A stretch of DNA of 51,991 nt from Candidatus Zhuqueibacterota bacterium (GCA_022562085.1 JADFPY010000002.1:1-51991), one strand, 5' to 3'. Positions 5,700 through 34,197 are shown, numbered from the stretch's first letter. The notes: generated by a model not told the origin, from the sequence alone. Numbers and translations: made by a program.

Positions 5700-7142
5700 C
5701 TACTCTTGAGAATTAGAAGGCAGAAGTTCATCCAGAAGCGCCCGATACGCCACGATCAACCTATGGTAAGTCAGGGCATTTTGTGCATAAGTCAACTTCG
5801 CGTTCTGCTCATTGTCCTGGCTCTGAATCACAAAAGTCAGTTCGCCCCGTCCCTGGTTGTATAGCTTTAGTTCCTCCTCTGTCCTCTCTTTTGCGGATTG
5901 AATCTGTTCCTGGTTGAGTGTTAAAACTCGCTCCAATTCTGTGATTTGGATGTAAATGTTGGTCACAGCAGACTCGAGGTCCAGAGAAATTTCATGCAAC
6001 TGTTCCTGAATTTGTTTTAGTTGGAGATCCGTTTTTGCAACCTGAGATTTTGCCGTACGATTCTGTAGAGGAACCCGAAATTGCAACCCGACCACCCAAT
6101 CGGGTTTGTCTAATACAAATGATTTCCCCAGTGCGGTATCAATGCTTTTTGTGTTAAACTGTGCCACCAATGACAGATCGGGCTTCAGAGTCTCTTCGAA
6201 GCCCTTCCGACTATAGCCAATTTGCTGCACCCGGAAATCGATGGCTTTGATGAGCCGGGAGTTTTCCTTTACTTGTCCAGTCGCTGTCTCAAGAGACGGA
6301 AGTTCGATAACACCATAGAGATCAAACTCTGGCTCTGCGGTGTTGAGCTCGCTGGACTGCGACAATACGGCCAACTCGGCCCGTACGGCCTTCAGTTGAG
6401 ACTCAACCAAAACCAGGTTCTGTTTCGAAATGCGGACAGCATCCTCTGCTCGAATGACATCTACTTGATCGACAAGGTTTGCCGCCCTCTTTCTTTCCGT
6501 CCTGGCTAGCTCTTCCTCACTGAGTTTCGAGCGCTCGGTTACTATCTTTATTTGCTCCATGAAAAAAACCCAGTCGAGAAATTTTCCAGCCAAAGTAGCC
6601 AAGAAATCTTCCTGATTTTCAAGAGCTACGACTTCTGAAAAATCTATGTCGAATTGCTTCAGCTCAAATTGGAATTTGTCCAAAAAGCCGTTCCTGTTTT
6701 TCAGCAACGGGTGGCTATAGGTCAGTGCGAATTGATTTTGATAAAACGCGTCCGGAACTTCAAAAACAGGACGGATATCCAAATACGCGCGACCCGAGGT
6801 GAATGAGACCGTCAATCGGCCACCTGTTTTCCAGAATAGTCTTTCAACCCCACCATTTATCGTCACAGCATCGGTTCTTTCGGGTCCTGCAAAGGCGATG
6901 GCAGGAGTTTCTCGCGAAAGATTCACTGAGGAAAACACGTTCCAGTCCTGCGTTCCTAAATTACTATTCTGCTCTTCTCGTTCGATTTGGGCGGTTAGTT
7001 TTTCCTTCTCAAAAATGGGATGCTTTTGCTGCAATTGATCAAGGAATGTTTCTAAGGTGATCGTCTGCGCGCCTGCTCTAGAGGCAAGGCTGATGCCCCA
7101 TAGGGCCGGCAATAATAATATCAATCTCTTAAGTATCATCAT
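5700..7142 (-). CDS. TolC-family outer-membrane efflux protein
   Basis: ORF 5700..7241. Preferred start is the ATG-ATG at 7142/7139, preceded by AGGAGG, giving signal peptide MMILKRLILLLPALWGISLASRAGAQ. Two-repeat coiled-coil/barrel pattern with LTLNQEQIQSAKE and LLDELL, typical of outer-membrane factors. Confidence 0.8.
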   Translation of the reverse strand: MMILKRLILLLPALWGISLASRAGAQTITLETFLDQLQQKHPIFEKEKLTAQIEREEQNSNLGTQDWNVFSSVNLSRETPAIAFAGPERTDAVTINGGVERLFWKTGGRLTVSFTSGRAYLDIRPVFEVPDAFYQNQFALTYSHPLLKNRNGFLDKFQFELKQFDIDFSEVVALENQEDFLATLAGKFLDWVFFMEQIKIVTERSKLSEEELARTERKRAANLVDQVDVIRAEDAVRISKQNLVLVESQLKAVRAELAVLSQSSELNTAEPEFDLYGVIELPSLETATGQVKENSRLIKAIDFRVQQIGYSRKGFEETLKPDLSLVAQFNTKSIDTALGKSFVLDKPDWVVGLQFRVPLQNRTAKSQVAKTDLQLKQIQEQLHEISLDLESAVTNIYIQITELERVLTLNQEQIQSAKERTEEELKLYNQGRGELTFVIQSQDNEQNAKLTYAQNALTYHRLIVAYRALLDELLPSNSQE

Positions 7143-7525: not shown

Positions 7526-7870
7526 TTAATAAAAGGAGTCACCGCAAGCGTAACCTTCGACGATCTTGCCGTCCGCAATGCGATCGATGTGCACTGCTGT
7601 GATAATCTTTCGACTATCCTGGTTTATGCAAGTGACCTGGTAATGTATAACCACTTTGTCTCCTTCCGCAATCATATCCAACTGGCTGAATTCTAGTTGG
7701 CTAAAAGCGGCGCGAAAATCTTTCATGACTTTTCTTAATCCGTCGCGATTCTTCCAGGCGTTGGCTGTAGTAAAGCCATCCGCCACGTATTCATCCAAAC
7801 GTTCCACATCACCCGTGATCATTTCTTCAAAAAAACGCCGCACCAGAGATTTGTTCTGCTCTATCGACAT
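7526..7870 (-). CDS. SnoaL-like / ester-cyclase family protein (NTF2 fold)
   Basis: ORF 7526..7897. Preferred ATG at 7870 with GGAGG at 7876-7880. N-terminus MSIEQNKSLVRRFFEEMITGDVERLDEYVADGF and C-terminus IADGKIVE are typical of ester cyclases. Confidence 0.7.
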   Translation of the reverse strand: MSIEQNKSLVRRFFEEMITGDVERLDEYVADGFTTANAWKNRDGLRKVMKDFRAAFSQLEFSQLDMIAEGDKVVIHYQVTCINQDSRKIITAVHIDRIADGKIVEGYACGDSFY

Positions 7871-7886
7871 TGCTACCTCCTTTCGT

Positions 7887-7896
7887 ATGTCCAGCA
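7887..7896. repeat. Left copy of the 10-bp target-site duplication ATGTCCAGCA
   Basis: An identical 10-mer occurs at 9544-9553, immediately outside the two IS termini. Confidence 0.85.
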
Positions 7897-9543
7897 TAGA
7901 CTTCTGTATGGGTTAATAACCTATTGTAAATAAAAGGCTTGAATTAGTAATTATTCCTTGCATTTCCTCCAAGATATCACTATATTTAACTTGTTTATTA
8001 TCAAAGGATTACTATTCGAAATCGGAGGCATATTTTGGACAATTTTCAAACTTCACTTTTCTATAGCTTACAAACCTTCATCGAATCTTCACCGCTTTAC
8101 AGAAAGTATTTTTATCTGTTTCAGGCGTTGGATTTATCTGACCTGCCAGACAGAAATTGGGGTGTCGGCTGCACCGGCTATTCTCGCAGAGCTATGCTGA
8201 GAGCACTCATCGTAAAGACTCTTGAAGGTATTGTCTCGATTCCTCGTCTGGTTGAATATCTCCAGAATCATCCGGTCATCGCTGAAATGTGCGGCTTCAA
8301 CATGATGAAAAAACTGCCGGATGAAAGCCAATTTTATCGCTTCTTGAAGCACATCAATAATTCTGTATTAGAGAAAATTCATCATAAGATTAACAAAACC
8401 CTCATCGAGCAGGGTGTCATCTCCATGGATACCTTTATTCTCGATTCTAAGCCCATTATGGCTGCCAGCAAAGACAATAACTTCAAAAATCCGAACCGAA
8501 ACACCACAAATAAAAAAAAGCCTAAAAGAAATCCCACCGCTACTCTGAGTTATTATTCATATCAAGAAATCAGTGGCAAAAAACACTTCATCTTCTTTTG
8601 GGGATACCGAACCCATGTCATTGTCTCAAAAGAAGGTATCCCACTCATTGAACTGACCTTGCCCAACAACCAGACCGATGCCAAAGTCGCCAAAAAGCTC
8701 ATCAACAAACTCAAAAAAGTTTACGGCTTCAAGAAAAAATCTATCTTCATAGCTGATGCCGCTTATGATGAAAAGGATATGTACAATTTCATTGTCGAGC
8801 AACTCAAATGTCAAGCCTTTATCCCTATCAATCCCAGAAACACACAACCCGAAAAAACCTTCGGCACAAAAGGACTGCCTTTATGTGAGGCCAACTTAGA
8901 AATGAAATCCAATGGCAGATTCAGGGAAGCCAAAAGAGAACGCATCAAGTTTAGATGCCCGTTAAAAACCGATAAAAAATTTGCACAAAAGTATCCGCAG
9001 GGCTGTCCGGTTAACCACCCGCGTTTCTTTGAAGGAAAACAATACGGTTGTACCAAATATTTGGACATTACCAATGATGCCAGAGCAAAAATCCCCAGAG
9101 ACAGCGCCTTCTTTAAAGAAACCTATAAATTACGCACCGAAGTCGAACGATACTTCTCCAGACTGGGCAATCGCGAAATTGAACAAACTACCTATTACAA
9201 AAGCAAAGCCATCAAAAACCAGATGACCCTTGCACATATGTCTCTATCACTAGTGGCTTATGCAGCGGCCATCCTCATGGAAAATCCCCATAAAATCAGA
9301 TGCTTCAGGACTTTTGCACAGCAGCCGCTCGCTTTTAAAAAAGCTGCATAGACCTCATAATTATCAAAGAACATCTACTAACTTTACTCCGGGTGGAGGA
9401 CTCACCCTTGACTAATCTAAGCTGATTATCTCCTGAAAATCCCAATCCTTACCCACACTGTTGTTACTCTCTATTCGCTATCTCAACCAGTTATTCGCAT
9501 CTCTCAATCTAATGCTTCTCTCCCCCTATTTTGCAGAAGTCTA
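7897..9543 (+). mobile_element. Intact insertion sequence (1647 bp), DDE transposase of the IS4/IS5 superfamily (IS5/IS1182-like, DUF772-type N-terminus)
   Basis: The termini TAGACTTCTG (7897-7906) and CAGAAGTCTA (9534-9543) are perfect 10-bp inverted repeats. They are flanked by the 10-bp direct repeat ATGTCCAGCA. There is a single transposase ORF inside. Confidence 0.85.
8035..9351 (+). CDS. DDE transposase (DDE_Tnp_1-like)
   Basis: TTG start at 8035 with GGAGG at 8024-8028. N-terminal DUF772-like YSRRAMLRALIVKTLEGIVSIPRLVEYL. Candidate catalytic residues are in FILDSKPI and FIADAAYD, plus the Y-x2-R-x3-E signature YKLRTEVERYFSRL. Confidence 0.85.
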   Translation: MDNFQTSLFYSLQTFIESSPLYRKYFYLFQALDLSDLPDRNWGVGCTGYSRRAMLRALIVKTLEGIVSIPRLVEYLQNHPVIAEMCGFNMMKKLPDESQFYRFLKHINNSVLEKIHHKINKTLIEQGVISMDTFILDSKPIMAASKDNNFKNPNRNTTNKKKPKRNPTATLSYYSYQEISGKKHFIFFWGYRTHVIVSKEGIPLIELTLPNNQTDAKVAKKLINKLKKVYGFKKKSIFIADAAYDEKDMYNFIVEQLKCQAFIPINPRNTQPEKTFGTKGLPLCEANLEMKSNGRFREAKRERIKFRCPLKTDKKFAQKYPQGCPVNHPRFFEGKQYGCTKYLDITNDARAKIPRDSAFFKETYKLRTEVERYFSRLGNREIEQTTYYKSKAIKNQMTLAHMSLSLVAYAAAILMENPHKIRCFRTFAQQPLAFKKAA

Positions 9544-9553
9544 ATGTCCAGCA
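9544..9553. repeat. Right copy of the 10-bp target-site duplication ATGTCCAGCA
   Basis: Identical to 7887-7896 and directly abuts the right IS terminus. Confidence 0.85.
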
Positions 9554-9621
9554 ATATGTGATTCTAATATTTACATACAAATTGAGCTACTCTCAACCTT
9601 AATGTCAACAGATTTTAATGT

Positions 9622-12600
9622 TCAAAACAGGAATTTCTTCTTCTTGGCCGCTTGCTTCTGTGCCCCATATTTTTCGAGCACAAATTCTTGAAATAAGCTT
9701 GAGAAAATCAGCGACTGTTCATCTTGCACTTTTATGTACCCTGCCTTGACTAACCTGCTTAATATATACTCTTGCGACTTATGAAGTCTCTTGCCGTGGG
9801 ACAGGCACAAGAAGACTTCGCGCTGATCCTCGTCGCAAATATCCCAAATCTGCTGGAAGTGTACTTTGGCTTCGTCCAGGAACTCCTCGCGCACTTTATC
9901 AAGAATGGCCTCATCGATATTCTCACCGGAGGAGACGTATTCGAAAAGGATTGCGCAGGCGATTTGAATAAAAAATGGATAGTATCCGGCAACATCGATA
10001 ATAAAAGGAGCATAAGGTTTGAGAGGGCCACCGCAAGCGCTGGAAGGCGTACTAATCAACTCTATCGCCTCGTTTTCACGGAGCTGCGACAAAGTGATAT
10101 TGGAAAATATATTAAAAAAAGGCGAGTAAGAAATTTCACTGCTGTGGCAGAGATCCTGAAGATTTTTCCCTGACGAGACAATATAGGCGATGTTGAAATT
10201 GTTGGCGATCGATCTGAAAAAGGAGAAGAATTCCATGTCGAAATTTGGATTTTTGGTCACAACCTCAAATTCATCAAATATCATGATGATCTTTAAACCA
10301 TTTTGATCCAGGGCGGAAACGAGTTTCTTGAAATCCTGGTAGTCCGGTTGCAAATTGGAATCCAAATCCAAATCCTTTTTGCATTCGCGCAATAATGACT
10401 TAATGATAAATTCGAGAAATTGCGGGATATCGATTTGTTGTTTTTCCTGAAAATCTATAAAGATGAATAAGTAGTCGTTGACATGTCGCAGGTATTTCGT
10501 GCGGTTCTCCGGATGATAAATGTAATGGAGGAGAGATGATTTTCCAATTCGACGTTCTCCAACGATAGAAATCGACTGCGGCCGTGATGCTCCGATGCGC
10601 GCACAAATCTTCTTGACTTCGCTCTTGCGGCCGTAGAAGTCATCAATATTCCGAATCATGACGCGATTCAAATAGGGATTCTTGAGCTCTATCGTAGGCG
10701 ATTCTTCCAGGGCTCGTTCTGACACGCCTGGCTGAGACGTATCGGGAGTGTCCTGCGCAACCAGCTCTGTCTTACGTTCTGGAAAATCAAGCGCAGCTAA
10801 ATCGGCGACTTCGTTTGAATCGATTTCTTCTTTGCCCTGCCTTTCATCCCTAATCAAAGAGGATTCCGGGAAAGCCTTAATCTGCTGATAACGGCCCGGC
10901 ATCAGTCTGGCCTTGACACTTTTAAGCAAGCTGTCAAGATCGTATCCTACCACATACAAACAAGGCACGAGAACCAGAGTAAGTGGCGTTGAAAAAAGCA
11001 GGCCGTAACCCAACGCTAGCGCCATGGGAGACATGTAAGCATCCTGGCCTCCTAGCCCGTACACCAGGGGGACAAGGCCGGCAACTGTCGTGAGTGTTGT
11101 CATGATGATAGCGCGCAACCGGTCTGCGGTCCCTTCTGCCACGATCTTCCTGATTCCCTCGTTAGGTTTGTCCTTACGGAGTTGATTTACATGACTAACC
11201 AGCACGAGCGAATCGTTGACTACAACACCTACAAGGCCGACCGCACCCAATATGCCGAGAAAACTGAACGGTTCACCATGCAGGACAAATGCCCAAATAA
11301 CCCCGATAATGCCAAATGGCACCGCCACGAGAACCATGAACGGCATGGTCATGGAGTTGAAGAGAAGAACCAGCAAGAAATAGATGCCGATGATTGCAAT
11401 CCCGAATGTGAGCAAAAGGCCCGCAAGCGATTCCTGCTGTTCCTGCGCCTTGCCGCCGATGACTAGCTGCAGGCCCGGGTATTCCTTGTCCAAATTGAAA
11501 TGAGCCAGGACTTGTTGAGCAGCCGCGAGAGCGGTGGTTTCCTGTTGAAAAAGGTCCGCTGAAACAGTTATTGAACGTTCACCTTCATAATGCCGAAACT
11601 CTGCCGGGCCGGGCACGATATTAAGGCGGGTTACGTCCTTCAACGGAATCAGTCGTCCCTGGCGATTCGGGACGGTAAGTCTCCTTAAATATGACAAACT
11701 CTTCCGCGCCTTTTCCTGCAGAACGACCCGAAAATTAACGTCTTCTTCGCCGTAGCGAATACTTGTGACAACCTCTCCGTCATAGGCAATACGCACGGTT
11801 TGCGCAATGTCAGCGGCCGTTAAACCCAGCCGGGCCAGTTTGTCGTAGTTGGGTTTAATATCCACCTGCTTCTTGCCTACCTTATCATCGCGCTGGACAT
11901 CCTTGACGCCTGGTATGGTCTGAAGAAACGCGTAAACGGAATCCGCCAAGGTTTTTCGCAAAGCATCGTCCGAGCCAACGATGCGTACTACAACAGGCTT
12001 GCCAACGCGGGGTCCGCCCACCTCTATGCGGAAGGAGGTCGTGCGAAAAACATCCAGGTCGTCGATCTGGCGCCGCAGACCCTCTACGATCTCATCCGCT
12101 GTCCTCTCCCGCTCGGAGAAGGGGGTGAGGTTAACGTAAATAAATGCGTAGTTTTCGCTTACAATATCTACCGAATCGCCATAGCGACCGAGACGCGTTA
12201 CGAATGAAGCCAGATCGACTTTAGGTAAATCGGACAGCATCTCTTCAACTTTTTTCGTCTGGTCAGAAGTAGCTTGTAAGGATGTGCCGGTCGGCAACTC
12301 CAAAGTAATAAAAAATTGCTCCGCACCTTTGGTTGGGAAAAGAACAAAATGCATCACATTTTTAGCATACCATAGTGAGCCGGCGAGGAGCACAATGGCG
12401 AGTAAAACGAGAAGGTATCGCCATCGCAGCAAATGAAACGAGATGCGCTCGAACGAATTCCGCACCGGGTCAAACCAGCTCCGGCCGGTTGAACGCCCTG
12501 ATTTGGCTTTGAGTTTTTGCATTCCTGGAACCAAATGAGCCGGCAGCGCAATCACTATTTCTCCGAGCGAGATGAGTAACGCCAGACTAACCGTCAAGGG

Positions 12601-13986
12601 AATGACGTAGATGAATTTTCCCATCAACCCCGGCATAAAAAACATGGGCGCAAAAGCCAGGAAAGTGGTCAGAATCGTCGTTAGCACCGGGCGAAAAACT
12701 TCATTAATTCCATTAACAGCTGCGTCCAGAGGAGAGTCCCCCAGCTCCCAGCGACGATAAATATTCTCAGATATGATAATGCCATCGTCCACGATAATAC
12801 CAAGGACAAGAATCATGGCGCTCAAGGTTATCCCATCCAGATAGGTGCCGAAAACGGGCAGCAGAAAGATGACGCCGAGCATAGCTACCGGGATGCCAAG
12901 CGCCACCCAAAAAGCAGTGCGAAGGTCTAGGAAAAACGCCAGCATCAGCACAACTAAGAGCAGACCGATAATGCCGTTTGAAAGCACAATATCGAACTTG
13001 CTGCGCACATATTTTGACACATCGCTGGAGTATAAGATTTCGACCTCATCGAGCAGATTTTTTCTTTCGACCTCAATAAGATCTTTGATGGCGTCAACGG
13101 TTCGGATAACGTCGGCCCCCTCACTCTTAAGCACCACAAATGAAATGACAGCTTTTCTGTCCATCCGTGACATAATTCTCTCTTCTTCAAAGTCGTCCTT
13201 GATAATGGCCAGATCTTTGACTTTTACGTTTGGGCCTTCAAATGTGCTGCGAACGATGACATTTCCCACTTCCAGTGGGTTGCTGAATTCGCTCAGCATG
13301 ACGATATTTTTTTCATCGGTGTACGATTCTATCGAGCCGCCGCGAGCGCTCATCGTTCGTGCCCGGATGGCCATAATGATTTCGCGCAATGGCAGCTGAT
13401 AGCGATTCATCAAAGCAGGAGAAACTTCAATTTTGATTTCGCGAGCGCGATAACCATATCGCTTTACCCGCGCCACACCCTTGATGTTTTTCAGTTTTTT
13501 CTCAAAAAGACGCGCGTGCTCGCGGAGTGCTGGATAAGGAAGGTTGCCGGAGAGTCCGACCTCAATGATGGGAAAAATGGAAGTCTTTAGCTCGGTGATC
13601 AACGGTGCTTCGGTTACTTCCGGGGGCAAGTCTGACACGCGGGCAACCGCCTCTCGGATCTCATCTACAACCTCATTCAGATCCTGCACATTGGGCTCGA
13701 TAGTGACTTCCATGAATGAGCTATTCTCCATCGAGATCGATGTCACTTCCTTGACATCGGTGACACTCTTTAACTCTTCCTCAATCTTGTTGGTAACGTT
13801 GAGCTCCACTTCCTCAGCTGAGGCCCCGGGATAATAGGTGGTAATAAACAGTCGGCCGAAATCGACGGCGGGGTATTGATCACGGTTAATGAACGTTAAG
13901 GTTGCCAGTCCAAAGATGATGACGCCGCCGGTAAAAAGATTCGCCACAATATGTCGTTCAATGAAGAATCTAAAGAGGGATTCCAT
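9622..13986 (-). CDS. Efflux RND permease (AcrB/HAE-type, ~1030 aa) fused through an acidic linker to a C-terminal Arch_ATPase/STAND-like P-loop ATPase module (352 aa)
   Basis: Uninterrupted 1454-aa ORF. The N-terminus MESLFRFFIERHIVANLF..., the two large loop regions and the TM bundles are typical of RND permeases, ending near LVPCLYVVGYDL. The linker is ...DERQGKEEIDSNEVADLAALDFPERK... The module follows: NPYLNRVMIRNIDDFYGRKSEV, Walker A GERRIGKS (nt 10537-10560), Walker B IIMIFDEFE, and a winged-helix-like C-terminus. Confidence 0.85.
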   Translation of the reverse strand: MESLFRFFIERHIVANLFTGGVIIFGLATLTFINRDQYPAVDFGRLFITTYYPGASAEEVELNVTNKIEEELKSVTDVKEVTSISMENSSFMEVTIEPNVQDLNEVVDEIREAVARVSDLPPEVTEAPLITELKTSIFPIIEVGLSGNLPYPALREHARLFEKKLKNIKGVARVKRYGYRAREIKIEVSPALMNRYQLPLREIIMAIRARTMSARGGSIESYTDEKNIVMLSEFSNPLEVGNVIVRSTFEGPNVKVKDLAIIKDDFEEERIMSRMDRKAVISFVVLKSEGADVIRTVDAIKDLIEVERKNLLDEVEILYSSDVSKYVRSKFDIVLSNGIIGLLLVVLMLAFFLDLRTAFWVALGIPVAMLGVIFLLPVFGTYLDGITLSAMILVLGIIVDDGIIISENIYRRWELGDSPLDAAVNGINEVFRPVLTTILTTFLAFAPMFFMPGLMGKFIYVIPLTVSLALLISLGEIVIALPAHLVPGMQKLKAKSGRSTGRSWFDPVRNSFERISFHLLRWRYLLVLLAIVLLAGSLWYAKNVMHFVLFPTKGAEQFFITLELPTGTSLQATSDQTKKVEEMLSDLPKVDLASFVTRLGRYGDSVDIVSENYAFIYVNLTPFSERERTADEIVEGLRRQIDDLDVFRTTSFRIEVGGPRVGKPVVVRIVGSDDALRKTLADSVYAFLQTIPGVKDVQRDDKVGKKQVDIKPNYDKLARLGLTAADIAQTVRIAYDGEVVTSIRYGEEDVNFRVVLQEKARKSLSYLRRLTVPNRQGRLIPLKDVTRLNIVPGPAEFRHYEGERSITVSADLFQQETTALAAAQQVLAHFNLDKEYPGLQLVIGGKAQEQQESLAGLLLTFGIAIIGIYFLLVLLFNSMTMPFMVLVAVPFGIIGVIWAFVLHGEPFSFLGILGAVGLVGVVVNDSLVLVSHVNQLRKDKPNEGIRKIVAEGTADRLRAIIMTTLTTVAGLVPLVYGLGGQDAYMSPMALALGYGLLFSTPLTLVLVPCLYVVGYDLDSLLKSVKARLMPGRYQQIKAFPESSLIRDERQGKEEIDSNEVADLAALDFPERKTELVAQDTPDTSQPGVSERALEESPTIELKNPYLNRVMIRNIDDFYGRKSEVKKICARIGASRPQSISIVGERRIGKSSLLHYIYHPENRTKYLRHVNDYLFIFIDFQEKQQIDIPQFLEFIIKSLLRECKKDLDLDSNLQPDYQDFKKLVSALDQNGLKIIMIFDEFEVVTKNPNFDMEFFSFFRSIANNFNIAYIVSSGKNLQDLCHSSEISYSPFFNIFSNITLSQLRENEAIELISTPSSACGGPLKPYAPFIIDVAGYYPFFIQIACAILFEYVSSGENIDEAILDKVREEFLDEAKVHFQQIWDICDEDQREVFLCLSHGKRLHKSQEYILSRLVKAGYIKVQDEQSLIFSSLFQEFVLEKYGAQKQAAKKKKFLF
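9625..10680 (-). other. ATPase module copy 1 (domain of the RND fusion protein)
   Basis: 352 aa from NPYLNRV to KKKKFLF. It aligns collinearly with the 352-aa module at 24928-25983, at roughly 60 percent identity counted by eye. Confidence 0.8.
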
Positions 13987-14220: not shown

Positions 14221-16038
14221 TCAAGTAGCTGTTTTTTTGATCACCACAGGATCTTCGATGAAATGAGTCTGGACATCCATTACGGGTTCAAACCAGGACT
14301 CCCCGGCCTCAGCTTCCTTGACGAAACGCCATTTTTTACAGACCTTTCTTACGCCTACCGGGTAAACGGTTAGATCCCCTTTCTTGTTAAAATGCAATCG
14401 CAGGAAATTTTTATAATCTGCGATGCTGAGTGAGGAAAACCCTGTATCACTATGAAAACGCAAGAGGAGGTTTGCAACCAACAGGTAGATTCCCATGACG
14501 AAGCCACCAAGCAACCCGCCGACAACAAACATTTCCGCGCCGAAGAGGAGCACGTGTGCCGGGTTACCGATCGTCATCTGCCAGATCGTAAGATTGAGAT
14601 AAGCAAACAGCCAAATCAGTCCCATATTCAGCGCCACATGGGTTAAGCCATGTAGACAACCGAAACTGAATTTCAAAAAAGCTCTTTTTGCATCACAAAA
14701 AGCTACCATGCCAAAAACCAGCACCAGGAGCAATACCATGTTCAAGGGGCTAACAATGAGCACTGAATAAAAGGTGCGGATGACTTCTCCAATCTCCCCT
14801 GGTCTGGGAGTAAGCTGCATCAATTTCTGCATGAGTGACACCTCATAAATGCTACTACTGCTCTGGAATATCCATGCAGACAACAAGTAGTAACTACCGA
14901 GGAATCGTGATAAACGCCAGTTTTTGAAAGAGAACAGCAGGTTTCGGAAGGCTAACCAGCGCGAGGTTGCAGGGCTGGGGAAAATGGCGCGGCGTGAGTA
15001 TTTCACTTTGAATTCGCCTTCATCTAGTTCCAGAGCATCAGGAATGCGATGGGGCGGGTGTAAAAAAGCGCCACCGCCACCGGCGATGATTTTCTGTCGT
15101 GTGCCACTTTCGTCCTGATGGCGGCAGTAGAGATGCTGATCGCCAGTCAGGTTCAGGCCAAGGATACCGCCGTGCTTGCGAATCACATTTCGTTCAAAGT
15201 AGGCTATGTTATGGTACGCGTCGGGACTCTTGGTGACGGTATAAATCCAACTTGGCTCCGCGGTACACAAAATAATTCGATCATTCCGTTTCATCTGTTT
15301 CTTTGCGATGTCTACGAAGTAGTTGAGCTGGGGCTTGTCAATGTACGCGTCGAGCTGCGTATCGACACCCCACAGCCACCAATTGTGCGGGAGTTTGATG
15401 GCAAAGTAACTACGAGATTGCTGAGTCTGCCAACCGCCGATCCAGCGTTTTTGACAGAAGAGACGTGTAAAACTGGTCAAACCGTCGTACCAATCATGGT
15501 TGCCGGGAATGGCATACAGGTGCGGTGCTTGTTCGTATATGACCCAGGGCAGAGCAGATTGATAAGGACCCACAGTGCGATCGCTGTAAGCCTCGCGCCC
15601 CGGTGTGGGATAGACTTCATCTCCACCCATGATCAGAAAGCGCCCCCTTTGCGTTTCAACTTGTTTGCCGTTGTGGTTGAAGACGAGCCGGGCCTTGGAC
15701 AGCAGTTTTGCAATCGTATAGGTCGAGTTCCAGCCGTCGCCAATATCCGCAACATAGTCAAACCAAAGTTCTTTTTCTGTACTGTAATCGTGCAGATCGG
15801 GTCGGTCCAAAGATCCCTGGATTTCACGCTTATCGGCGTACGCACCAAAGATAATCGAGAGCAGAGCCCGAATGGCTGTAATAATCAATTGCATCGGGTC
15901 AAACCAGCCAACCATCGGTTTGCGCGCAAAACCCAGATCCTTCTTTTTTTGCGATTTTGGTCGTTGGCCACCCACAAACGGGCTGGGACCGACAGACGCA
16001 AAGGCTCTCTTCAATTCTGATCGGAGCGGTCGCTCCAT
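14221..16038 (-). CDS. Calcineurin-like metallophosphoesterase with a C-terminal polytopic membrane domain
   Basis: Metallophosphoesterase motifs ADIGDGWN, GGDEVYP and IPGNHDWYDG. The C-terminal third has about 5-6 hydrophobic helices (LLVLVFGMVAF, LIWLFAYLNLTIW, FVVGGLLGGFVMGIYLLVANLLL). Confidence 0.75.
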   Translation of the reverse strand: MERPLRSELKRAFASVGPSPFVGGQRPKSQKKKDLGFARKPMVGWFDPMQLIITAIRALLSIIFGAYADKREIQGSLDRPDLHDYSTEKELWFDYVADIGDGWNSTYTIAKLLSKARLVFNHNGKQVETQRGRFLIMGGDEVYPTPGREAYSDRTVGPYQSALPWVIYEQAPHLYAIPGNHDWYDGLTSFTRLFCQKRWIGGWQTQQSRSYFAIKLPHNWWLWGVDTQLDAYIDKPQLNYFVDIAKKQMKRNDRIILCTAEPSWIYTVTKSPDAYHNIAYFERNVIRKHGGILGLNLTGDQHLYCRHQDESGTRQKIIAGGGGAFLHPPHRIPDALELDEGEFKVKYSRRAIFPSPATSRWLAFRNLLFSFKNWRLSRFLGSYYLLSAWIFQSSSSIYEVSLMQKLMQLTPRPGEIGEVIRTFYSVLIVSPLNMVLLLVLVFGMVAFCDAKRAFLKFSFGCLHGLTHVALNMGLIWLFAYLNLTIWQMTIGNPAHVLLFGAEMFVVGGLLGGFVMGIYLLVANLLLRFHSDTGFSSLSIADYKNFLRLHFNKKGDLTVYPVGVRKVCKKWRFVKEAEAGESWFEPVMDVQTHFIEDPVVIKKTAT

Positions 16039-16364
16039 AACATCGCCTCTTAGGTTAATTAATTATGGGCTTAAACCACTACCATTGCGATGGCTCTCTC
16101 AAAAAGGATGTCCCGTTCAGGAATTATTTAAATTACGTACCTCCCTAACGCGGACAAACCGCAAATCTCAAAAAACAAACTACAAATAAAACTCAAATAC
16201 CAAATTCCAATAAAACCATAACTTTCAGTGATTTTGTTTGAAAATTTGAAAATTGGATTTTGGAAATTACTTGTTATTTGTGATTTCAAATTCTGCCAAA
16301 AAATGGCAGAAAATTACTTGTCAGTTACTAAAAGGTACCCTTGAGATCGATCAAGAGGTATGTA

Positions 16365-16585
16365 ATGAGTAGATTGAAAAAGTTATCACATACGCTTTAC
16401 AAATGCAAGTTTTATATGGCATTTTGTCCGAAATATATCGTTCTCGGAAACTTCAAAGGTGATTATCACTGAATATGCGCGTCAGCTATTGTGTTGCTCG
16501 TAGTTAGTATCCCACAGCCTTGACCAGGAGGTCAATCATGGAATCCAACAATATGAGTGCTCATGTCTTCCTATTTATGCGGTAG
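16365..16585 (+). pseudogene. Decayed N-terminal remnant of an IS200/IS605-family Y1 (HUH) transposase tnpA
   Basis: Three frame-shifted pieces. MSRLKKLSHTLYKCKFYMAFCPKY (16365-16472) resembles the IS200 TnpA N-terminus (..LaHT.w.CKYHIVF.PKY..). TEYARQLLC lies at 16468-16503. IMESNNMSAHVFLFMR (to 16585) resembles ..E...aDHIHML.. Both His-containing motifs are degraded. An 8-bp-stem hairpin TTCTGCCA-AAAAA-TGGCAGAA at 16291-16311 lies upstream. The remnant is truncated where the 3' end of the next gene begins. Confidence 0.45.
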
Positions 16586-18220
16586 TCCGATCCCATATCT
16601 TCCTGGCGAGATAACGTGATGCGGATCGAGGGCCTGCTTGATTTTGTTTGCCAGCTTTTGAAATTCCGGCGTGCAGTTTAATATTTCGTCATAGTAAGCT
16701 ACGGTGGTCCGGTATTGCTGATAACCTTGCTCAAGAAGAACTGTGGCCAGCTCCTTGCGTAGAGCTTGCGCTCGTTTCGCTTCATCTGCGTTGGTTTTGT
16801 CGTAGAAGATAGCTTGCAACGTTAATGCGCAACGCGGGTTAATCATGACAAATGTACAGGCAAAATCGAATCCATGTTTGTGAAAGATCTCAGTGCACAA
16901 CTCCTTCAATTTATCTATTTCACTTCCAGTCAATGGCACGATGCAGGAAAACCAGACGAACCCCGTACCATCGCGCGCCGGGTCTAAATTCTCCGTGGGG
17001 GCAGGTGTCTGGGATTTGAAGTAAGCAATTCTCAAAACATATTCTCCCGGGATACCTTTGAAAATGGGATAAACTTGCGGAAGTCCCTCAATTTTTTCGA
17101 GGGAAGCACTGGTCACTGACCTGAGAATGGAGTTGATCATCGGGAAATCCTTATACCTTCTCCAGAAACGGGTTATTTTCCCGACAATCTTCAGCTTGGC
17201 ATCATCCAAAAGATCGAACCGGCCGTACGGCTTCAGATGCTGTTTGAGAAGCTTAAGCTGTAACCGAACTTGCTTGCGGGTTCCATAGATGCCACCTGAG
17301 AGTAACCATGGCGATATGAGGTACTTCTCCCTGACCGAGGCCATTTCTTTTGCAGAGAGGTAGGTTTGCCCATCTGCCAACCGGTCGTAGGGATAGGGCT
17401 GCATGGCGGACAGAAAAAGTACATCATTTGTGAGGTGAACATTGCTTAGAAGGATTCGATTTAAGGACAAGCGGCGCAGTGTGTCTATCACTGCCGGCAG
17501 ATATTCCTCTTTTTCCAAATCAAGCAAAAACATGACGAACTTTTCGGGCTCGGGCATTAGCCAAATCCCGGCTTTGGTTACAATACCAAAGTTGGCCTGG
17601 GCGAACAGGCCCTCAATATACGGCCCGGTGCCCCATTTGTACACATTCGCAGTTCGCGAGTTTTCGGGTCCCCCTCCCGTGCGCAAAATCTCGCCTGACG
17701 GAAGAACGACTTCCATGCCGCACAGTTGACCAAAGTGATCCCAGTAAGGTGTATAACCAACGCCACGTTCCATGGCATTGCCAACGACACTTCCTTCGGG
17801 AGTTGCATCTGTGCAGTCGGTCCAGAGTTTGATATTGTTATGATCCAGATGCTCCCGGAGTTTCTTCTGGGTAACTCCAGGCTCGATTACGGCATAGGCC
17901 AATTCCTCGTTCACCTCGACGACACGATTCATGCGATCCAGCATCAAGATCACAGCCCCGGCCTCGAGCCCCATACTTGCACCATAACTCCAGTTCTTGC
18001 CTTTGCTGAATGGCCATATTGGGAATTTGTATCGGTTGGCCAGTTTCACAATCTGTGCAACTTCTTCGGTAGTGGCCGGGAAAACTACCGCCGCCGGTAT
18101 TTTTAACCATTCGCTTGTATCTGTAGAATACTTCTTGACATCTTCCGCGTCCGTAAGAACATGGCTGGTGCCGACAATTTGTCTGATCCCTTCTAAAGCT
18201 TTCTCTTCAACTCTCGCCAT
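16571..18220 (-). CDS. FAD-binding oxidase of the PCMH/VAO family (vanillyl-alcohol oxidase / 4-alkylphenol oxidase-like)
   Basis: N-terminal FAD_binding_4-type region PAAVVFPATTEEVAQIVKLANRYKFPIWPFSKGKNWSYG. 549 aa, the size of VAO/PCMH flavoproteins. Confidence 0.8.
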   Translation of the reverse strand: MARVEEKALEGIRQIVGTSHVLTDAEDVKKYSTDTSEWLKIPAAVVFPATTEEVAQIVKLANRYKFPIWPFSKGKNWSYGASMGLEAGAVILMLDRMNRVVEVNEELAYAVIEPGVTQKKLREHLDHNNIKLWTDCTDATPEGSVVGNAMERGVGYTPYWDHFGQLCGMEVVLPSGEILRTGGGPENSRTANVYKWGTGPYIEGLFAQANFGIVTKAGIWLMPEPEKFVMFLLDLEKEEYLPAVIDTLRRLSLNRILLSNVHLTNDVLFLSAMQPYPYDRLADGQTYLSAKEMASVREKYLISPWLLSGGIYGTRKQVRLQLKLLKQHLKPYGRFDLLDDAKLKIVGKITRFWRRYKDFPMINSILRSVTSASLEKIEGLPQVYPIFKGIPGEYVLRIAYFKSQTPAPTENLDPARDGTGFVWFSCIVPLTGSEIDKLKELCTEIFHKHGFDFACTFVMINPRCALTLQAIFYDKTNADEAKRAQALRKELATVLLEQGYQQYRTTVAYYDEILNCTPEFQKLANKIKQALDPHHVISPGRYGIGLPHK

Positions 18221-18292
18221 TTAGCTTCTCCAAAGTGAATATCCGCCCTTGTCTTCGTAGATAGTTCCATGTGGCAGGCTCGCTGAATTTAA

Positions 18293-19900
18293 CTACGAGA
18301 CCTGGCCATCCGGAAACAGAGACTGCCGGAGTTCCTGGGTAGCGCTGCTGGCAGTGTTGGCGTTGAAGACCGCAAAAACATAGCGATCTGGCCTAAGAAC
18401 CACAAGATTCACCTGGAATCTATCGAACCAGGCTGCGAGCTTGCTCTCCAGGTCAGCCACGACTGCAAGGCCATCTTCAGGCCCTGGCTGTTCCGTTGCC
18501 CCGATGATCCGGACAAACCTGGTCGACAGGTTCTCCCAAAAAGCTTGCGACTCTGTAGTTATCACGCAGCGAGGATCAACCTCCAGGCCGAGAACAGCGA
18601 AGCCGTGGCCCAGCACCTCATCCAGCAGAACGCTCTCCTCATCTGTCGTGCGCACTTTTGGTTGAATGAATAGTTTGCCCCGGGCCGCACGTGATTGTTG
18701 CTGGCGGTCGCTAGCAACCAAACCACCACGAAAGCTTGCCTCTGGCCTGAATTCTCCACTTCTTACCTTGCGGCCAATGGTAGGTACAAACTTGAGAAGA
18801 CGGAAGAATAGGTTGCGAATCCAGGCAACAGTTCGGCTCTCGGTTTGTAAAATACGACCGAAATTAACTGACATTCTGGTCATTCTCTGAACGTGAGGTT
18901 TTCGTTCGATTTGGTAGGACTGCAGGATCGCGGGGTCGGCATGACCACGAAGAACGAGCGCCATCTTCCAACTCAAATTACTAACATCGCGAATCCCTGA
19001 GTTCATGCCGGTGCCACCAAACGGTGGCGTGAGGTGTGCCGCATCGCCGGCCAGGAAAACCCGCCCAGCAGTCCACTTGTCTGCGATACGGGCATGGTAG
19101 ATGTACACGGACTTGCGGATCAGCTCCACATCTCCTAAATCCACCCAGGGAGCTAACAGCGCTCTGACCGTTTCGAGCTGTTCCATTTGCTCCTGGGTTT
19201 CCCCAGTCTTGAGCATGAACTGCCAGCGATGATGGTTGAACGCCATCGGATAGGTAACAACCGGACGCTTCGGATCACAGATGAATTGGAGATTTGACGG
19301 ATACTTAGATGGATCATCAATCTTGACATCGACAACAAGCCATTGCTGGAAGGTCTTTCCAATCAACTCCGCACCTATCTGATGACGCACAATGCTACGA
19401 CCTCCATCACATCCCAGCAGGTACTTTGCTCTGACCTCGTAAACTTTATCGGTACCATGGTCTCGCACGACGACGGTAACTCCTTCGCCAGAGTCAGAAA
19501 ATGACTCTGCTTCGTTTCCCAGTCGAACTTCAACACAGGGAAATCGGTCAACGCCTTCGCGCAGCGTTTTTTCGATAAATGGCTGATAGAGGAGTATGAA
19601 CACATGGAACCCGTAGCCGAAATCGGTGCTACGTACTTCCAGGAATGGTTTGCCAACACCATCCAGAAACTGTAAAAGATTCTGGGGCAGCAGTTTGGGC
19701 ATGAGCAGATCTGACAAATGGATCGACTGCCAAATGCGCATCGATTCATCATCGCAAGTTCCTGCACGCGGCAACCGGTAAACGGCATCATCACGTTCGA
19801 GCACCAGGGTGCGGATGCCAAGTTGGCCAAACAAGTTTGCAGCCGTCGTGCCAACGGGGCCATACCCCGCGAGGATAATGTCATAGTCCGGGGTCGTCAT
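18293..19900 (-). CDS. FAD-dependent aromatic-ring monooxygenase (PheA/TfdB/MhpA-like)
   Basis: ORF 18293..19945. Preferred ATG at 19900 with GGGAGGA 8 nt upstream. GxGxxG motif DIILAGYGPVGTTAANL. DG and GD motifs GCDGGRSIVR and LAGDAAHLTPPFGGTGMNSGIRD. Confidence 0.8.
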   Translation of the reverse strand: MTTPDYDIILAGYGPVGTTAANLFGQLGIRTLVLERDDAVYRLPRAGTCDDESMRIWQSIHLSDLLMPKLLPQNLLQFLDGVGKPFLEVRSTDFGYGFHVFILLYQPFIEKTLREGVDRFPCVEVRLGNEAESFSDSGEGVTVVVRDHGTDKVYEVRAKYLLGCDGGRSIVRHQIGAELIGKTFQQWLVVDVKIDDPSKYPSNLQFICDPKRPVVTYPMAFNHHRWQFMLKTGETQEQMEQLETVRALLAPWVDLGDVELIRKSVYIYHARIADKWTAGRVFLAGDAAHLTPPFGGTGMNSGIRDVSNLSWKMALVLRGHADPAILQSYQIERKPHVQRMTRMSVNFGRILQTESRTVAWIRNLFFRLLKFVPTIGRKVRSGEFRPEASFRGGLVASDRQQQSRAARGKLFIQPKVRTTDEESVLLDEVLGHGFAVLGLEVDPRCVITTESQAFWENLSTRFVRIIGATEQPGPEDGLAVVADLESKLAAWFDRFQVNLVVLRPDRYVFAVFNANTASSATQELRQSLFPDGQVS

Positions 19901-19922
19901 ACTGAATGTCCTCCCTTCTTCA

Positions 19923-21494
19923 TTATGAATCTTTGTAACTTTCAACCACGGCTTCCGCCGTCTGCTCCGAGATAGCGGAAATGGTCATGCAGGGGTGAAA
20001 CCCCAGTGATGAGGGAATCATGGACCCATCAGCGACGTATAAGCCGGGGTAGCCATGTACTTCTCCCGCGGAGGAAACAACACCCTCTTCGGGTGAATCA
20101 GAGAGATTGCATCCGCCGAGTGGGTGCACGGTGAGAATTCGTTTAAAGATGGTCCAGGTGACCAGTGGGGCAAATGTTCCGCCATAAATATCGCTTACTT
20201 CCTGCATACTTGCAATCATCTTCTCCACCAACTCGTGGTTCTCACGAGCATAATTCCACGTAATATCGAGATTTCCCTTTTTCAACCGGATCTGACCGTT
20301 GGCATTATCCCGTCCAATCGCAAAAAGGTTGGTCATTCTGGCAGGATCACCAGCGTTGGGCATAGACGCTTTACCCGGTTTACTCAACAGTCCTTTCTTA
20401 AATGCCCAAATGAGAATGGACGCCATCTTATGCCACAGTATCGGCGACAGAAAACGCAGCCAACCGTGGTTGGGCTGGCCCATAGCAGCCAAAACTTTCA
20501 TCACCGGTTGACTGAAGCTAGGCGCGGCCATGGTGAACTGAGGCGCCTCGTCAAAATAGCGCATCACGGAAGTGACATCCGGCCCTTTCCATGGTTCGAG
20601 GTCGATCTCACTATTCTGAATGGACCCAAGAAAATCACCATTTCCTGAGAAACCGCTGCCCAGTTTTGCACTAAGCTTGGGCAGGGTTCTGAATACATCA
20701 CGACTCTGGAGTAGAATCTTGTTGGTTCCTAGAGTACCCGCTGAGAGAACCGTACGTGAGGCATCAACACTGCCCGCTTTATCGGTTCCCACGTCTTTAT
20801 AATGCACGCGATAGCCCGATTGCAAAGGCTCAATATGCATGACGTTGATGCCGGTTTGGATGCGAGCGCCCAACTGCTCGGCCTTCGCAAGATAGGTTAG
20901 ATCCAGCGAGTTTTTTGCTCCGTACTGACATCCAAATTCGCACTCCGCTACCATGCGGCAAGCCTCCCGGTCTGGCCCGCCAGGCTCTTGCCAACTCACT
21001 GCCTGGTCTGGATCGAAAACATCTCGATTTAGCTTCTTAGCTGCTTGTCGAAAGATGTCGCGTTTCGGCAATGAGACGTCTGCCGGCACCGGTGCGATGC
21101 CCAGCATATCTGCGACCTTATCGTAGTATGGATCAAGACTCGCGCGGTTAATTAAGCGCGGCCATTTGGGATCTTCAAACACCACAGCGTCCGGTCGGAT
21201 ATGGATATTGGCGTAAATCAAAGATCCACCGCCAACGCCGCTTGCAACAATGGTTCCTATGCCGGAGAAAAAGTCCAATTCATACAAGCCCCGAAAATCC
21301 GATTGTTTCGGGTAACGCCAAAACAAGCTCTTGACATCGGTGACGTCTCTGGGGAATTCGCCGGGTTTGTAGCGTTTGCCGCGCTCCAAAACCAGCACGG
21401 ATTTGCCGGCCTCCGCCAAACGTAAAGCATTTATGGAACCACCGAATCCAGAACCGATGACGACTGCATCGTACTGATGTGGAGAATTATTCAT
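19923..21494 (-). CDS. GMC-family oxidoreductase (cholesterol-oxidase-like)
   Basis: DAVVIGSGFGGSINALRLAEAGKSVLVLERG at the N-terminus. C-terminal VHPLGGC and GLYVADGSMIPSSLGFHPCMTISAISE. The ATG overlaps the upstream stop (ATGA at 21491-21494). Confidence 0.85.
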   Translation of the reverse strand: MNNSPHQYDAVVIGSGFGGSINALRLAEAGKSVLVLERGKRYKPGEFPRDVTDVKSLFWRYPKQSDFRGLYELDFFSGIGTIVASGVGGGSLIYANIHIRPDAVVFEDPKWPRLINRASLDPYYDKVADMLGIAPVPADVSLPKRDIFRQAAKKLNRDVFDPDQAVSWQEPGGPDREACRMVAECEFGCQYGAKNSLDLTYLAKAEQLGARIQTGINVMHIEPLQSGYRVHYKDVGTDKAGSVDASRTVLSAGTLGTNKILLQSRDVFRTLPKLSAKLGSGFSGNGDFLGSIQNSEIDLEPWKGPDVTSVMRYFDEAPQFTMAAPSFSQPVMKVLAAMGQPNHGWLRFLSPILWHKMASILIWAFKKGLLSKPGKASMPNAGDPARMTNLFAIGRDNANGQIRLKKGNLDITWNYARENHELVEKMIASMQEVSDIYGGTFAPLVTWTIFKRILTVHPLGGCNLSDSPEEGVVSSAGEVHGYPGLYVADGSMIPSSLGFHPCMTISAISEQTAEAVVESYKDS

Positions 21495-24400: not shown

Positions 24401-24913
24401 CTCTTTCATATACTTTGCAGATTTTTCGTGCGCGGAGAGTTTTTTCAAAGACGGCAACTTGTCTGGATACGGTACGGGTTTCAACATTTCCCGGGCTCGC
24501 TTGAAACCGGCCGCCACGCCGTCGTTGAGGTCCTGCACCAGCGCTTTTGGCCACGCCGGATTTTGAAAGACCCGGGGGTCAGCCTCGATAGCAACATTCG
24601 CGTTAATCAAGGAGGTACCACCAAGGCCACAACCTACCAAGACATTTATGTCATCATTGGTATGGAAGTCGAAAAGATTCGTTTCAGAGCCAGAGTGGCC
24701 TTTTGGTGTATCGTACTGCGAGTTTGCAGCGGCTTCAGGTAGGGTACTGGGAAAATCGCCTGGAAAGAACTCTTTTCCTCGTTCCAATACACAGACCTGC
24801 TGCCCAGCCCTGGCAAGACGCGATGCGGCGATCCCGCCGCCATAGCCGGATCCGATCACCACAACTGTGTAATGATTCTTGATGTTTTCGATGGGTAGAG
24901 ATAGACGTGACAT
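21491..24913 (-). CDS. Fusion protein: GMC oxidoreductase (cholesterol-oxidase-like) + ~250-aa middle region + C-terminal alpha/beta-hydrolase-fold domain
   Basis: ORF 21491..24928 opens with TTG. Preferred ATG at 24913 with a GAGGA that overlaps the upstream stop codon. The GMC part has VVVIGSGYGGGIAASRLARAGQQVCVLERG, VHPLGGC and GLYVLDGSVIPTSLGTNPLLTISAIAE. The C-terminal part has GPVILSHGLGVSSRIF, the candidate nucleophile region VVHCYGSTTW and the His region IPDYGHIDCIYG. Confidence 0.8.
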   Translation of the reverse strand: MSRLSLPIENIKNHYTVVVIGSGYGGGIAASRLARAGQQVCVLERGKEFFPGDFPSTLPEAAANSQYDTPKGHSGSETNLFDFHTNDDINVLVGCGLGGTSLINANVAIEADPRVFQNPAWPKALVQDLNDGVAAGFKRAREMLKPVPYPDKLPSLKKLSAHEKSAKYMKEDFYRTPIAVTFEENKDGLNHVGVEQSPCILCGDCTSGCNHTAKNTVQMNYLPDARNHGADIFTEVNIRYLEKQAGKWVVHFKATGMGREKFDASTLFVRADIVILAAGTLGSTEILLRSKQNGLTASDMLGKHFSGNGDMIAFAYNNDEKINGIGWGNRTPDADNPVGPCITSIIDTRKSSEDYKEGMCIEDGTIPGAMSAILPLLFSTASKFIGEDTDEGLLDFLGEKKRELESVFLGSAYRGAVNNTQTYLVMCHDGCGGVMTLQDDRLRITWPGIGKDEIFIKAKKRLIKATEALGGTYVPNPTWTKLLGHNLVTVHPLGGCIMAEQSSDGVVNHKGQVFASKESDEVHRGLYVLDGSVIPTSLGTNPLLTISAIAERNVALIANDHGWRINYDLPSRAPKAVLPSKVGIQFTETMVGYFSTKIKEDYQRAAELGKTEGSTFEFTVTVISNDLELMLQDERHQATLIGTVSAPALSTAALTVTEGVFNLLTEHPDEIETRLMRYDMKLSSQEGQDYYLKGFKEIRDDPGFDLWSDTTTLYITIYEGENEGGPVFGKGVLKIRAMDFMKQMRTLKVTNTSSLAQCLKYNAQFGTFFAGRLFDTFGGIFAGQNYFNPDAAPRKKRPLRASAPEVFDIKTQDQVTLRLTRYQGGSKGPVILSHGLGVSSRIFSMDTYDTNLVEYLFAHEYDVWLLDYRASIELPAAHAQFSGDVIAKYDYPRAVDAVLEITAAKSVQMVVHCYGSTTWSMSMLGGWLQGVRAAVCSQVSTHMKLPFLSRMKTGLHTPSFLAKMGIKSLNAYTAKDAKWPDKLFNEALKFYPIQKEERCNNPVCHRIAFLYGQLYEHDQLNRLTHDNLHELFGVANITSFEHLALMSRKGHLVNLQGEDSYLPHLERMAIPITFISGEENECYLPESTEITYNLLRDQNGADLYKRFVIPDYGHIDCIYGKNAVRDVYPHILNQLEETKS

Positions 24914-24924
24914 GATATTGATCC

Positions 24925-27549: not shown

Positions 27550-27552
27550 GAT

Positions 27553-29972: not shown

Positions 29973-29995
29973 TTTTCTCCTCCTTTTGTTTTCGG

Positions 29996-34181: not shown

Positions 34182-34197
34182 AACACAAACTCACTAC

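Follow-up and report, generated by a model that had tools for sequence, protein, structure and literature searches.

RND pumps have a central role in drug resistance and in envelope-lipid export, and they are regarded as purely proton-driven and regulated mainly at the transcriptional level. STAND modules are nucleotide-dependent oligomerization switches, which activate the enzymes fused to them by induced proximity. The Mycobacterium tuberculosis protein PknK and the Rv0386-type cyclase-ATPases join a signaling enzyme to a STAND/AAA_16-type NTPase, are thought to be controlled by oligomerization, and carry C-terminal TPR or HTH sensor or output regions; we know of no kinase- or cyclase-STAND protein that is fused to a transporter. 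Here, we describe a gene at positions 9622-13986 (minus strand) of a 51,991-nucleotide stretch of DNA from a Candidatus Zhuqueibacterota bacterium (GCA_022562085.1 JADFPY010000002.1:1-51991; the whole stretch is referred to as the window), in which an RND permease and an nSTAND2-type STAND module are encoded as one protein.

Two-gene operons were the basis on which the nSTAND2 family was defined, and the two STAND NTPases that such an operon encodes were predicted to assemble into a toroidal hetero-multimer (Kaur et al. 2021, PMC8195603). In these systems, one partner with eroded NTP-binding motifs carries GT4 or HEPN effectors (PMC8195603). Among RND transporters, MmpL3 has a cytosolic C-terminal domain of ~200 aa that is dispensable for transport and needed for polar localization (PMC6656915), and MmpL7 is mentioned as a possible substrate of PknD (Perez 2006, cited in PMC1847690). 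Our literature search for a link between an RND pump and a STAND or other NTPase found nothing relevant.

The single uninterrupted frame of 1454 residues that an earlier note on this sequence had described was borne out, as the frame is open for all 1454 codons on the minus strand. The gene and its parts are as follows (TM, transmembrane; pLDDT, predicted local distance difference test).

9622-13986, minus strand: RND-nSTAND2 fusion gene, 1454 aa plus stop codon, a single open reading frame (ORF) with an ATG start
10936-13986, minus strand: RND permease, residues 1-1017, of the 12-TM type with two periplasmic loops (ACR_tran)
10687-10935, minus strand: acidic tether, residues 1018-1100, with a pI of 4.6 and pLDDT below 50 for most of it
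9625-10686, minus strand: nSTAND2 STAND NTPase module, residues 1101-1454 (PF20702)
10537-10560, minus strand: Walker A of the pump module, GERRIGKS, residues 1143-1150
10264-10290, minus strand: Walker B of the pump module, IIMIFDEFE, residues 1233-1241

The permease is complete, as had been claimed, with ACR_tran matched end to end and the RND part closing on LVPCLYVVGYDL, the last residue of which is residue 1017. The module starts with LKNPY at residue 1101. The linker between them is indeed acidic (18 D+E versus 11 K+R, pI 4.6), but its length is 83 aa rather than about 75 aa. Similarly, both Walker motifs of the module are intact, and its length was corrected from 352 to 354 aa.

The fusion was recovered from independent sources. 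In a protein search, P0001 (1452 aa, 98% identity) and P0002 (1461 aa, 74% identity) were the only full-length hits among the matches listed, and the others covered the RND part (65 to 72% of the query). The RND-only matches are unfused proteins of about 950 to 1060 aa with 57 to 65% identity, and P0003 (88% identity) ends at a contig edge. Genome and metagenome scans yielded full-length orthologs in a Caldithrix sp. metagenome-assembled genome (L002, 97%) and at L019 (98%), a C-terminal fragment with 93% identity (L026), and the orthologs of the 74% lineage at loci L001 and L030. At least 15 full-length copies (1451 to 1461 aa), which fall into two 90%-identity clusters, are present in ENA, JGI, Logan, and NCBI assemblies, where they are named "efflux RND transporter permease subunit, partial" or "ATP-binding protein, partial."

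All full-length orthologs are in frame, with no stop codon or frameshift between the RND part and the module. Compared with the 74% ortholog L001, the pump part had a dN/dS of 0.14, the module one of 0.10, and the linker one of 0.64, at a dS of ~1, which is near saturation; the linker showed 43% identity and in-frame indels of 14, 3, and 1 aa. Read-through and chimeric assembly were rejected on the basis of the intact frame in independent assemblies, the in-frame linker indels, and the purifying selection on both flanks. With the frame intact in the window, in L001, L002, L019, and L030, and in the at least 15 database copies, the chance that a sequencing indel or chimera produced the fusion is negligible. 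Independent orthologs, selection analysis, profiles, structure prediction, and phylogeny agree on domain shuffling instead of read-through, which is the origin that the earlier note had argued for. By sequence criteria, these results demonstrate a real fusion with two functional halves. It is confined to a narrow uncultured Caldithrix-related lineage.

The permease was then compared with known RND proteins. ACR_tran covers residues 5 to 1013 (model positions 2 to 1019 of 1021, E = 3e-175, Pfam), and the NCBIfam matches in the fusion protein were to RND families only and confined to the first 1020 residues. Because its score against RND_permease_2 (514.6 bits) is under the subfamily cut-off of 1250 bits, the protein is a divergent RND member; the nearest solved structures are MexK, TriC, ZneA, and MdtB. 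The Asp-Asp pair of TM4 (VDD, 12781-12798) and the Arg of TM11 (RLR) are kept, and TM10 has Asn-Asp (ND, 11209-11226) at the position of Lys940-Asn in AcrB. Each of the 119 close relatives that were matched has this Asn-Asp (119 of the 120 RND-length matches listed; nearly all are unfused), which is therefore a clade trait and not decay. A degenerate pump was ruled out by the clade-wide Asn-Asp together with the dN/dS of 0.14. Judged by its end-to-end profile match, its retained residues, and the orthologous OEP partner encoded downstream, the pump looks competent and proton-driven. The RND clade with the TM10 Asn-Asp spans Calditrichota, KSB1, WOR-3, Zixibacteria, and others.

No membrane-fusion protein (MFP) gene adjoins the pump, in agreement with the earlier note. 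The nearest HlyD-type adaptor gene (49232-50326) belongs to a separate conventional efflux operon (47644-50326, plus strand), together with an outer-membrane efflux protein (OEP) gene at 47644-49155. The closest unfused relatives of the pump (64 to 65% identity; L013 and L014) are OEP-RND pairs that also have no adaptor gene adjoining, so the absence of the MFP is an inherited clade trait and not specific to the fusion. The OEP encoded at 5700-7142 of the window showed 44% identity over its full length to the OEP beside the closest unfused RND. Since the C-terminus of RND proteins is cytoplasmic, as in the AcrB topology, the module should be located in the cytoplasm.

The module was assigned by profile and by predicted fold. 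PF20702 (nSTAND2) matched residues 1133 to 1394 with 156.8 bits against a cut-off of 24 (E = 9e-46, model positions 1 to 272 of 279), and all pump-fused modules keep 21 of the 21 family-invariant residues and at least 44 of the 45 near-invariant ones. When the module sequence was searched against the PDB, there was no match, and a fold search was therefore needed. AlphaFold2 predicted the module alone with a pLDDT of 94.6, as a five-stranded P-loop alpha/beta core followed by a helical lid, a winged helix, and a terminal helix; the best Foldseek hits were the archaeal ATPase_2 proteins 2fna and 2qen, ORC/Cdc6, and the STAND protein Avs4 (E = 3e-10 to 1e-6). Thus the PF20702 match and the predicted P-loop fold identify the C-terminal ~350 aa as an NTPase, as had been proposed. 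An ABC-like motor was rejected for want of an ABC_tran profile or ABC signature and because of the ORC/Cdc6/STAND-type fold and the disordered tether. On profile and model evidence, the module is an nSTAND2 STAND NTPase, predicted to act as an oligomerization switch rather than a motor. The protein ends ~40 residues past the winged helix, and the Pfam scan of the fusion protein found no TPR, WD40, or LRR after the NTPase. Many modules of the subfamily end in a basic-aromatic tail, KKKKFLF(W), including those at 9625-9650 and 24928-24960 and those of P0128, P0138, and P0241. Its composition is possibly that of a membrane-binding motif; the 74% pump ortholog has no such tail and ends in ...QEHGAPK.

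The linker was examined in an AlphaFold2 model of residues 930 to 1454, in which the TM helices and the module were both confident. TM12 continues as a short helix, after which come ~65 disordered aa, and because residues 1033 to 1097 (10696-10890) had pLDDT below 50 and no secondary structure, the linker is considered to be a flexible tether.

Next, we examined the relatives of the module. The 120 listed relatives are stand-alone or are fused, at either end, to Ser/Thr kinases, class III cyclases, or SpoIIE/PP2C phosphatases. In addition, residues 900 to 1454 were searched against 1.84 billion representative proteins. The best 150 matches listed were all 1190 aa or shorter, and the ten longest of them have a kinase, a kinase-cyclase, a kinase together with a caspase, a TIR, EAD7, or TPR domain, or a second STAND domain. 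No transporter fusion was present among the about 270 listed module relatives, and none of the 120 had ACR_tran; this does not disprove other RND-STAND fusions, because the module search did not list the known fusions P0001 and P0002 and 50%-identity clusters may be represented by unfused RNDs.

The closest relative in the window is an 874-aa Ser/Thr kinase-class III cyclase-nSTAND2 protein (hereafter, the kinase-cyclase protein), which showed 60% identity to the pump over 387 aa (E = 2e-171). The alignment runs from GLKNPY to the C-terminus, confirming the shared (E/G)LKNPY junction of the earlier note. The pump module was 64% identical to the kinase-cyclase module and 37% identical to a stand-alone nSTAND2 protein of the same operon. 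In a neighbor-joining tree with bootstrap, the pump modules formed a clade (100%), the sister of which (92%) was the kinase(-cyclase) modules of the same lineage. Since the two are sister clades, the pump module arose by duplication from the kinase-cyclase gene or from the direct ancestor of that gene, and the tree topology indicates that this duplication predates the split of the two pump lineages. Compared with L002 and L019, nucleotide differences crowd into the last ~1.6 kb of the pump gene (9622-11286; 7 to 16 per 300 nt versus 0 to 5 upstream). At 43 differing module sites, agreement with the window's own kinase-cyclase paralog was seen at 24 for the window allele and at 9 for the relatives. 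This 3' divergence pattern may reflect recombination or gene conversion between paralogous modules.

The pairing with a kinase is also found in the 74% lineage. Locus L032 overlaps the start of L030 and L001 with 100% identity over 500 nt and carries a kinase-nSTAND2 gene (406-2442, 678 aa) located 18 nt upstream of the GMC-hydrolase gene, in the same oxidoreductase-to-pump operon. The kinase and the module of this protein are each 79% identical to those of the window protein. An operon that carries a kinase-nSTAND2 gene at its head and, near its tail, an RND-nSTAND2 gene is thus conserved across a dS of ~1. In addition, in a relative with 90% identity (L027), gene order is the same for the kinase-cyclase gene and the operon's upstream part; L027 is 40272 nt long, and the fusion protein P0503 is listed on a contig likewise of 40272 nt.

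The fusion gene lies in a region of ~33 kb (5700-38993) co-oriented on the minus strand. The other features of this region are listed below, from high to low coordinates.

33170-38993, minus strand: type II fatty acid synthase/polyketide synthase (FAS/PKS)-like set, consisting of a short-chain dehydrogenase/reductase (SDR), ketoacyl synthase III (KASIII), two FabA-like proteins, ketoacyl synthase (KAS), acyl carrier protein (ACP), acyltransferase, and phosphopantetheinyl transferase (PPTase)
29996-32449, minus strand: membrane-anchored STAND-like ATPase (ATPase_2 and AAA_14 matches; likely start at ATG 32449)
28662-29972, minus strand: outer-membrane beta-barrel-like protein, 436 aa (Phenol_MetA_deg, E = 4e-8; signal peptide and C-terminal Phe)
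27553-28662, minus strand: stand-alone nSTAND2 NTPase, 369 aa (PF20702, E = 1e-35; Walker A GEPKIGKS, Walker B FFDDF)
24925-27549, minus strand: Ser/Thr kinase-class III cyclase-nSTAND2 protein, 874 aa (Pfam Pkinase, Guanylate_cyc, and nSTAND2)
21491-24928, minus strand: GMC oxidoreductase with alpha/beta-hydrolase
19923-21494, minus strand: GMC oxidoreductase
18293-19945, minus strand: MhpA-like FAD monooxygenase
16571-18220, minus strand: FAD_binding_4 oxidase
14221-16038, minus strand: membrane metallophosphoesterase-like protein
7894-9577, plus strand: insertion sequence (IS), 1684 bp, with a DDE_Tnp_1/DUF772 transposase at 8035-9351
7526-7871, minus strand: SnoaL-like small protein, with a conserved ATG at 7871 preceded by GGAGG
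5700-7142, minus strand: OEP/TolC family protein, 480 aa, the presumed pump partner (PF02321)

The five enzyme genes that separate the pump gene from the kinase-cyclase gene (14221-24928) are in the same order in L001, L030, and L027. Stop/start overlaps occur at 24925-24928, 21491-21494, and 19923-19945, and the two GMC oxidoreductases are cholesterol-oxidase-like. The block of oxidoreductase, pump, SnoaL, and OEP genes recurs in the 74% lineage (L001 and L030), with the OEP gene at the same position in both, and the SnoaL gene directly follows the pump gene in L001, L002, and L030. An HpnA-like epimerase gene follows the OEP gene in the operon. The FAS/PKS-like set accompanies the pump block in both lineages on opposite sides, being downstream in the 74% lineage (18782-24386 in L030). 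The L030 genes of this set have weak ApeI-like and ApeP-like matches, which hints at an aryl-polyene-like or other specialized lipid as the cargo. The scan for promoters and terminators performed no better than on shuffled sequence.

The earlier note had placed the TolC-family gene downstream of the pump gene, on the same strand, and separated from it by an IS, all of which was seen. The IS is inserted between the stop codon of the pump gene and the ribosome-binding site of the SnoaL gene, 23 bp upstream of the SnoaL ATG, and ~24 extra bases adjoin one IS end. L002 and L019 do not have the IS, and the gap between the pump stop codon and the SnoaL ATG is ~65 nt there. The SnoaL start at 7897 in the ORF list falls inside the IS end. 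Two other observations concern the surroundings of the operon genes. A STAND-like ATPase with a C-terminal Ser/Thr kinase (641 aa, 40007-41932, plus strand) is divergent from the large operon. An antisense ORF of 300 aa (15118-16020, plus strand) lies in the metallophosphoesterase-like gene and is open too in L002 (3445-4347, minus strand); it is probably a compositional by-product, the 97% identity being little evidence.

Four genes upstream of the oxidoreductase genes form a cassette (24925-32578, minus strand), which encodes the membrane-anchored STAND ATPase, the outer-membrane barrel-like protein, the stand-alone nSTAND2 protein, and the kinase-cyclase protein. The membrane-anchored ATPase has a cytoplasmic NTPase and one TM segment at about residues 464 to 486 of an 860-aa ORF, followed in the ortholog alignment by an extracytoplasmic helical or TPR-like region and by a C-terminal domain that is conserved and may be NTF2-like. 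Under relaxed Pfam settings, the extracytoplasmic part gave faint TPR matches only. The cassette was also found at L015 (4188-11731), L027 (478-8005), L028 (4961-12619), L029 (5066-12655), and L031 (592-8385). Across these loci, the STAND ATPase has 764 to 877 aa, the barrel 431 to 446 aa, the stand-alone nSTAND2 protein 359 to 371 aa, and the kinase-cyclase protein 872 to 895 aa, with 49 to 90% identity of the kinase-cyclase protein where measured, and with 48 to 90% for its orthologs. Operons with several nSTAND2 genes recur at L015 to L017, L027 to L029, and L031. The literature searched gave no description of the four-gene cassette.

The explanation that we favor, and to which we give an even chance, is that the paralogous modules co-oligomerize in an ATP-dependent manner and thereby dock the kinase/cyclase to a proton-driven exporter of a lipid or pigment. 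On this reading, the pump is probably a directly connected part of a signaling complex. Co-assembly is the most economical reading because the sister-paralog modules sit in one operon. It has a precedent in the hetero-multimer predicted for the nSTAND2 two-gene operons (PMC8195603). Of the functions suggested in the earlier note, recruitment into a signaling complex was the best fit, and nucleotide-dependent gating was kept as a rival. Transport would stay proton-driven, and the module would serve as a nucleotide-dependent oligomerization switch on a disordered tether of ~65 to 80 residues. The RND trimer would supply three modules under the membrane as a nucleus, on which the ATP-bound modules of the pump and the kinase(-cyclase) would co-assemble, perhaps joined by the stand-alone nSTAND2 protein and the membrane-anchored STAND ATPase where these are present. 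Kinase and cyclase activity would thereby be placed on the pump, and the export of a specialized lipid or pigment, made by the type II FAS/PKS-like genes and tailored by the oxidoreductase genes, would be coupled to phospho- and cAMP signaling. The direction could be either way, from the load or state of the pump to a signal or from a signal to the pump, for example, if the tether, which is rich in Ser/Thr, were phosphorylated. The hetero-oligomerization, the direction of signaling, and the cargo are what we infer. A more specific version, which is conceivable though somewhat unlikely, makes the pump a "transceptor," whose transport cycle or load is read by the STAND switch, which in turn nucleates a hetero-oligomer with the Ser/Thr kinase/adenylate cyclase.

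Several points weigh against co-assembly of the pump with the kinase-cyclase protein. The cassette occurs without any RND in L028, L029, and L031 and does not need the pump in those lineages. The kinase-nSTAND2 protein of L032 has no cyclase domain, and the 405 nt upstream of its gene contain no stand-alone nSTAND2 gene; because the partner in the 74% lineage differs in this way, any complex has no fixed set of members. In this nSTAND2 subfamily, no residue could be assigned as a canonical AAA+ arginine finger, and the divergence of close paralogs may have served to prevent cross-assembly. In addition, the cargo, probably a specialized lipid or pigment, is a guess from the gene neighbors alone.

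Other explanations were weighed on the same evidence. The modules could act as an autonomous regulator, oligomerizing within or between RND trimers, sensing ATP/ADP or a cytoplasmic ligand, and allosterically gating or throttling the pump with no involvement of the kinase. The trimer already gathers three modules, the Walker A and B motifs are intact in a strongly conserved module, and the existence of stand-alone nSTAND2 proteins means that the module can act without a fused effector. However, a disordered tether of ~65 aa transmits allosteric force to the transmembrane domain poorly, and gating without the kinase leaves the operon pairing with a sister-paralog kinase in two lineages unexplained, so that we regard this alternative as unlikely. 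It is quite unlikely that the module is a localization or clustering domain with no signaling role. Such a role has a precedent in MmpL3's cytosolic C-terminal domain, which serves polar localization and not transport (PMC6656915), and it would fit the oligomerization of STAND modules and the KKKKFLF(W) tail shared by several modules, which might bind the membrane. Nevertheless, the 74% pump ortholog lacks this tail, and the fully conserved NTPase motifs favor a nucleotide-switched function over a passive anchor.

A conflict or defense system, in which the STAND proteins sense an invader and the RND part is the effector, for example, a membrane-depolarizing or toxin-exporting one, was also considered, since nSTAND2 was defined in predicted counter-invader systems (PMC8195603) and some relatives of the module have TIR, caspase, or EAD7 domains. 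Against this, the PADLOC defense profiles gave only weak P-loop matches for the module (PDC-S27 at 27 bits and TnsC) and only generic kinase-domain matches (PD-T4-6) for the kinase proteins of the operon. Moreover, the pump is complete, strongly constrained, and associated with its ancestral OEP partner, and the operon is full of lipid-biosynthesis and oxidoreductase genes, not defense genes. A defense role is therefore very unlikely.

If the proposed docking of the kinase/cyclase onto the pump is correct, the locus is a natural example of post-translational, nucleotide-switched coupling of efflux and signaling. If the pump is in fact a transceptor, it would be the first efflux pump hard-wired to phospho- or second-messenger signaling by shared oligomerization modules, and the first STAND assembly on a transporter trimer. 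With this fusion, the partners of STAND modules, hitherto soluble enzymes, come to include a 12-TM transporter. The locus also draws attention to a conserved four-gene STAND cassette associated with the envelope, and the fusion offers a simple experimental handle on module assembly. Each family is itself known; what is new is the combination of the RND superfamily with Pfam nSTAND2.

Finally, the fusion protein was compared with the known systems. It is similar to the HAE-1 pumps AcrB and MexB in the 12-TM permease, the two periplasmic loops, the TM4 Asp-Asp, the TM11 Arg, and the OEP gene downstream; in contrast to these pumps, it has about 440 extra C-terminal residues with a STAND NTPase, and it differs in two clade traits, TM10 Asn-Asp in place of the AcrB Lys940-Asn and the lack of an adjoining MFP gene. 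With the mycobacterial lipid exporters MmpL3 and MmpL7 (HAE-2), which are its nearest functional analogies, it has in common an RND permease with a cytosolic C-terminal extension, used in those exporters for localization and protein interactions and not for transport (PMC6656915); for MmpL7, a link to a Ser/Thr kinase is reported. However, the MmpL3 extension is not an NTPase, any kinase link of the MmpL proteins is in trans and not by shared modules, and they belong to a different RND family. The operon also resembles the nSTAND2 two-gene systems, with the same NTPase family, several nSTAND2 genes per operon, variable fused domains, and a predicted hetero-multimer, whereas here Walker A and B are retained in all three modules, one of which is fused to a kinase-cyclase and another to an RND transporter. 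Unlike the classical STAND receptors (NACHT, NB-ARC, and Avs), the fusion protein has no C-terminal repeat or sensor domain after the NTPase. The 874-aa protein of the window shares an N-terminal signaling enzyme and a STAND NTPase with the PknK/Rv0386 type but, in contrast to that type, the nSTAND2 proteins of the window end after the winged helix.

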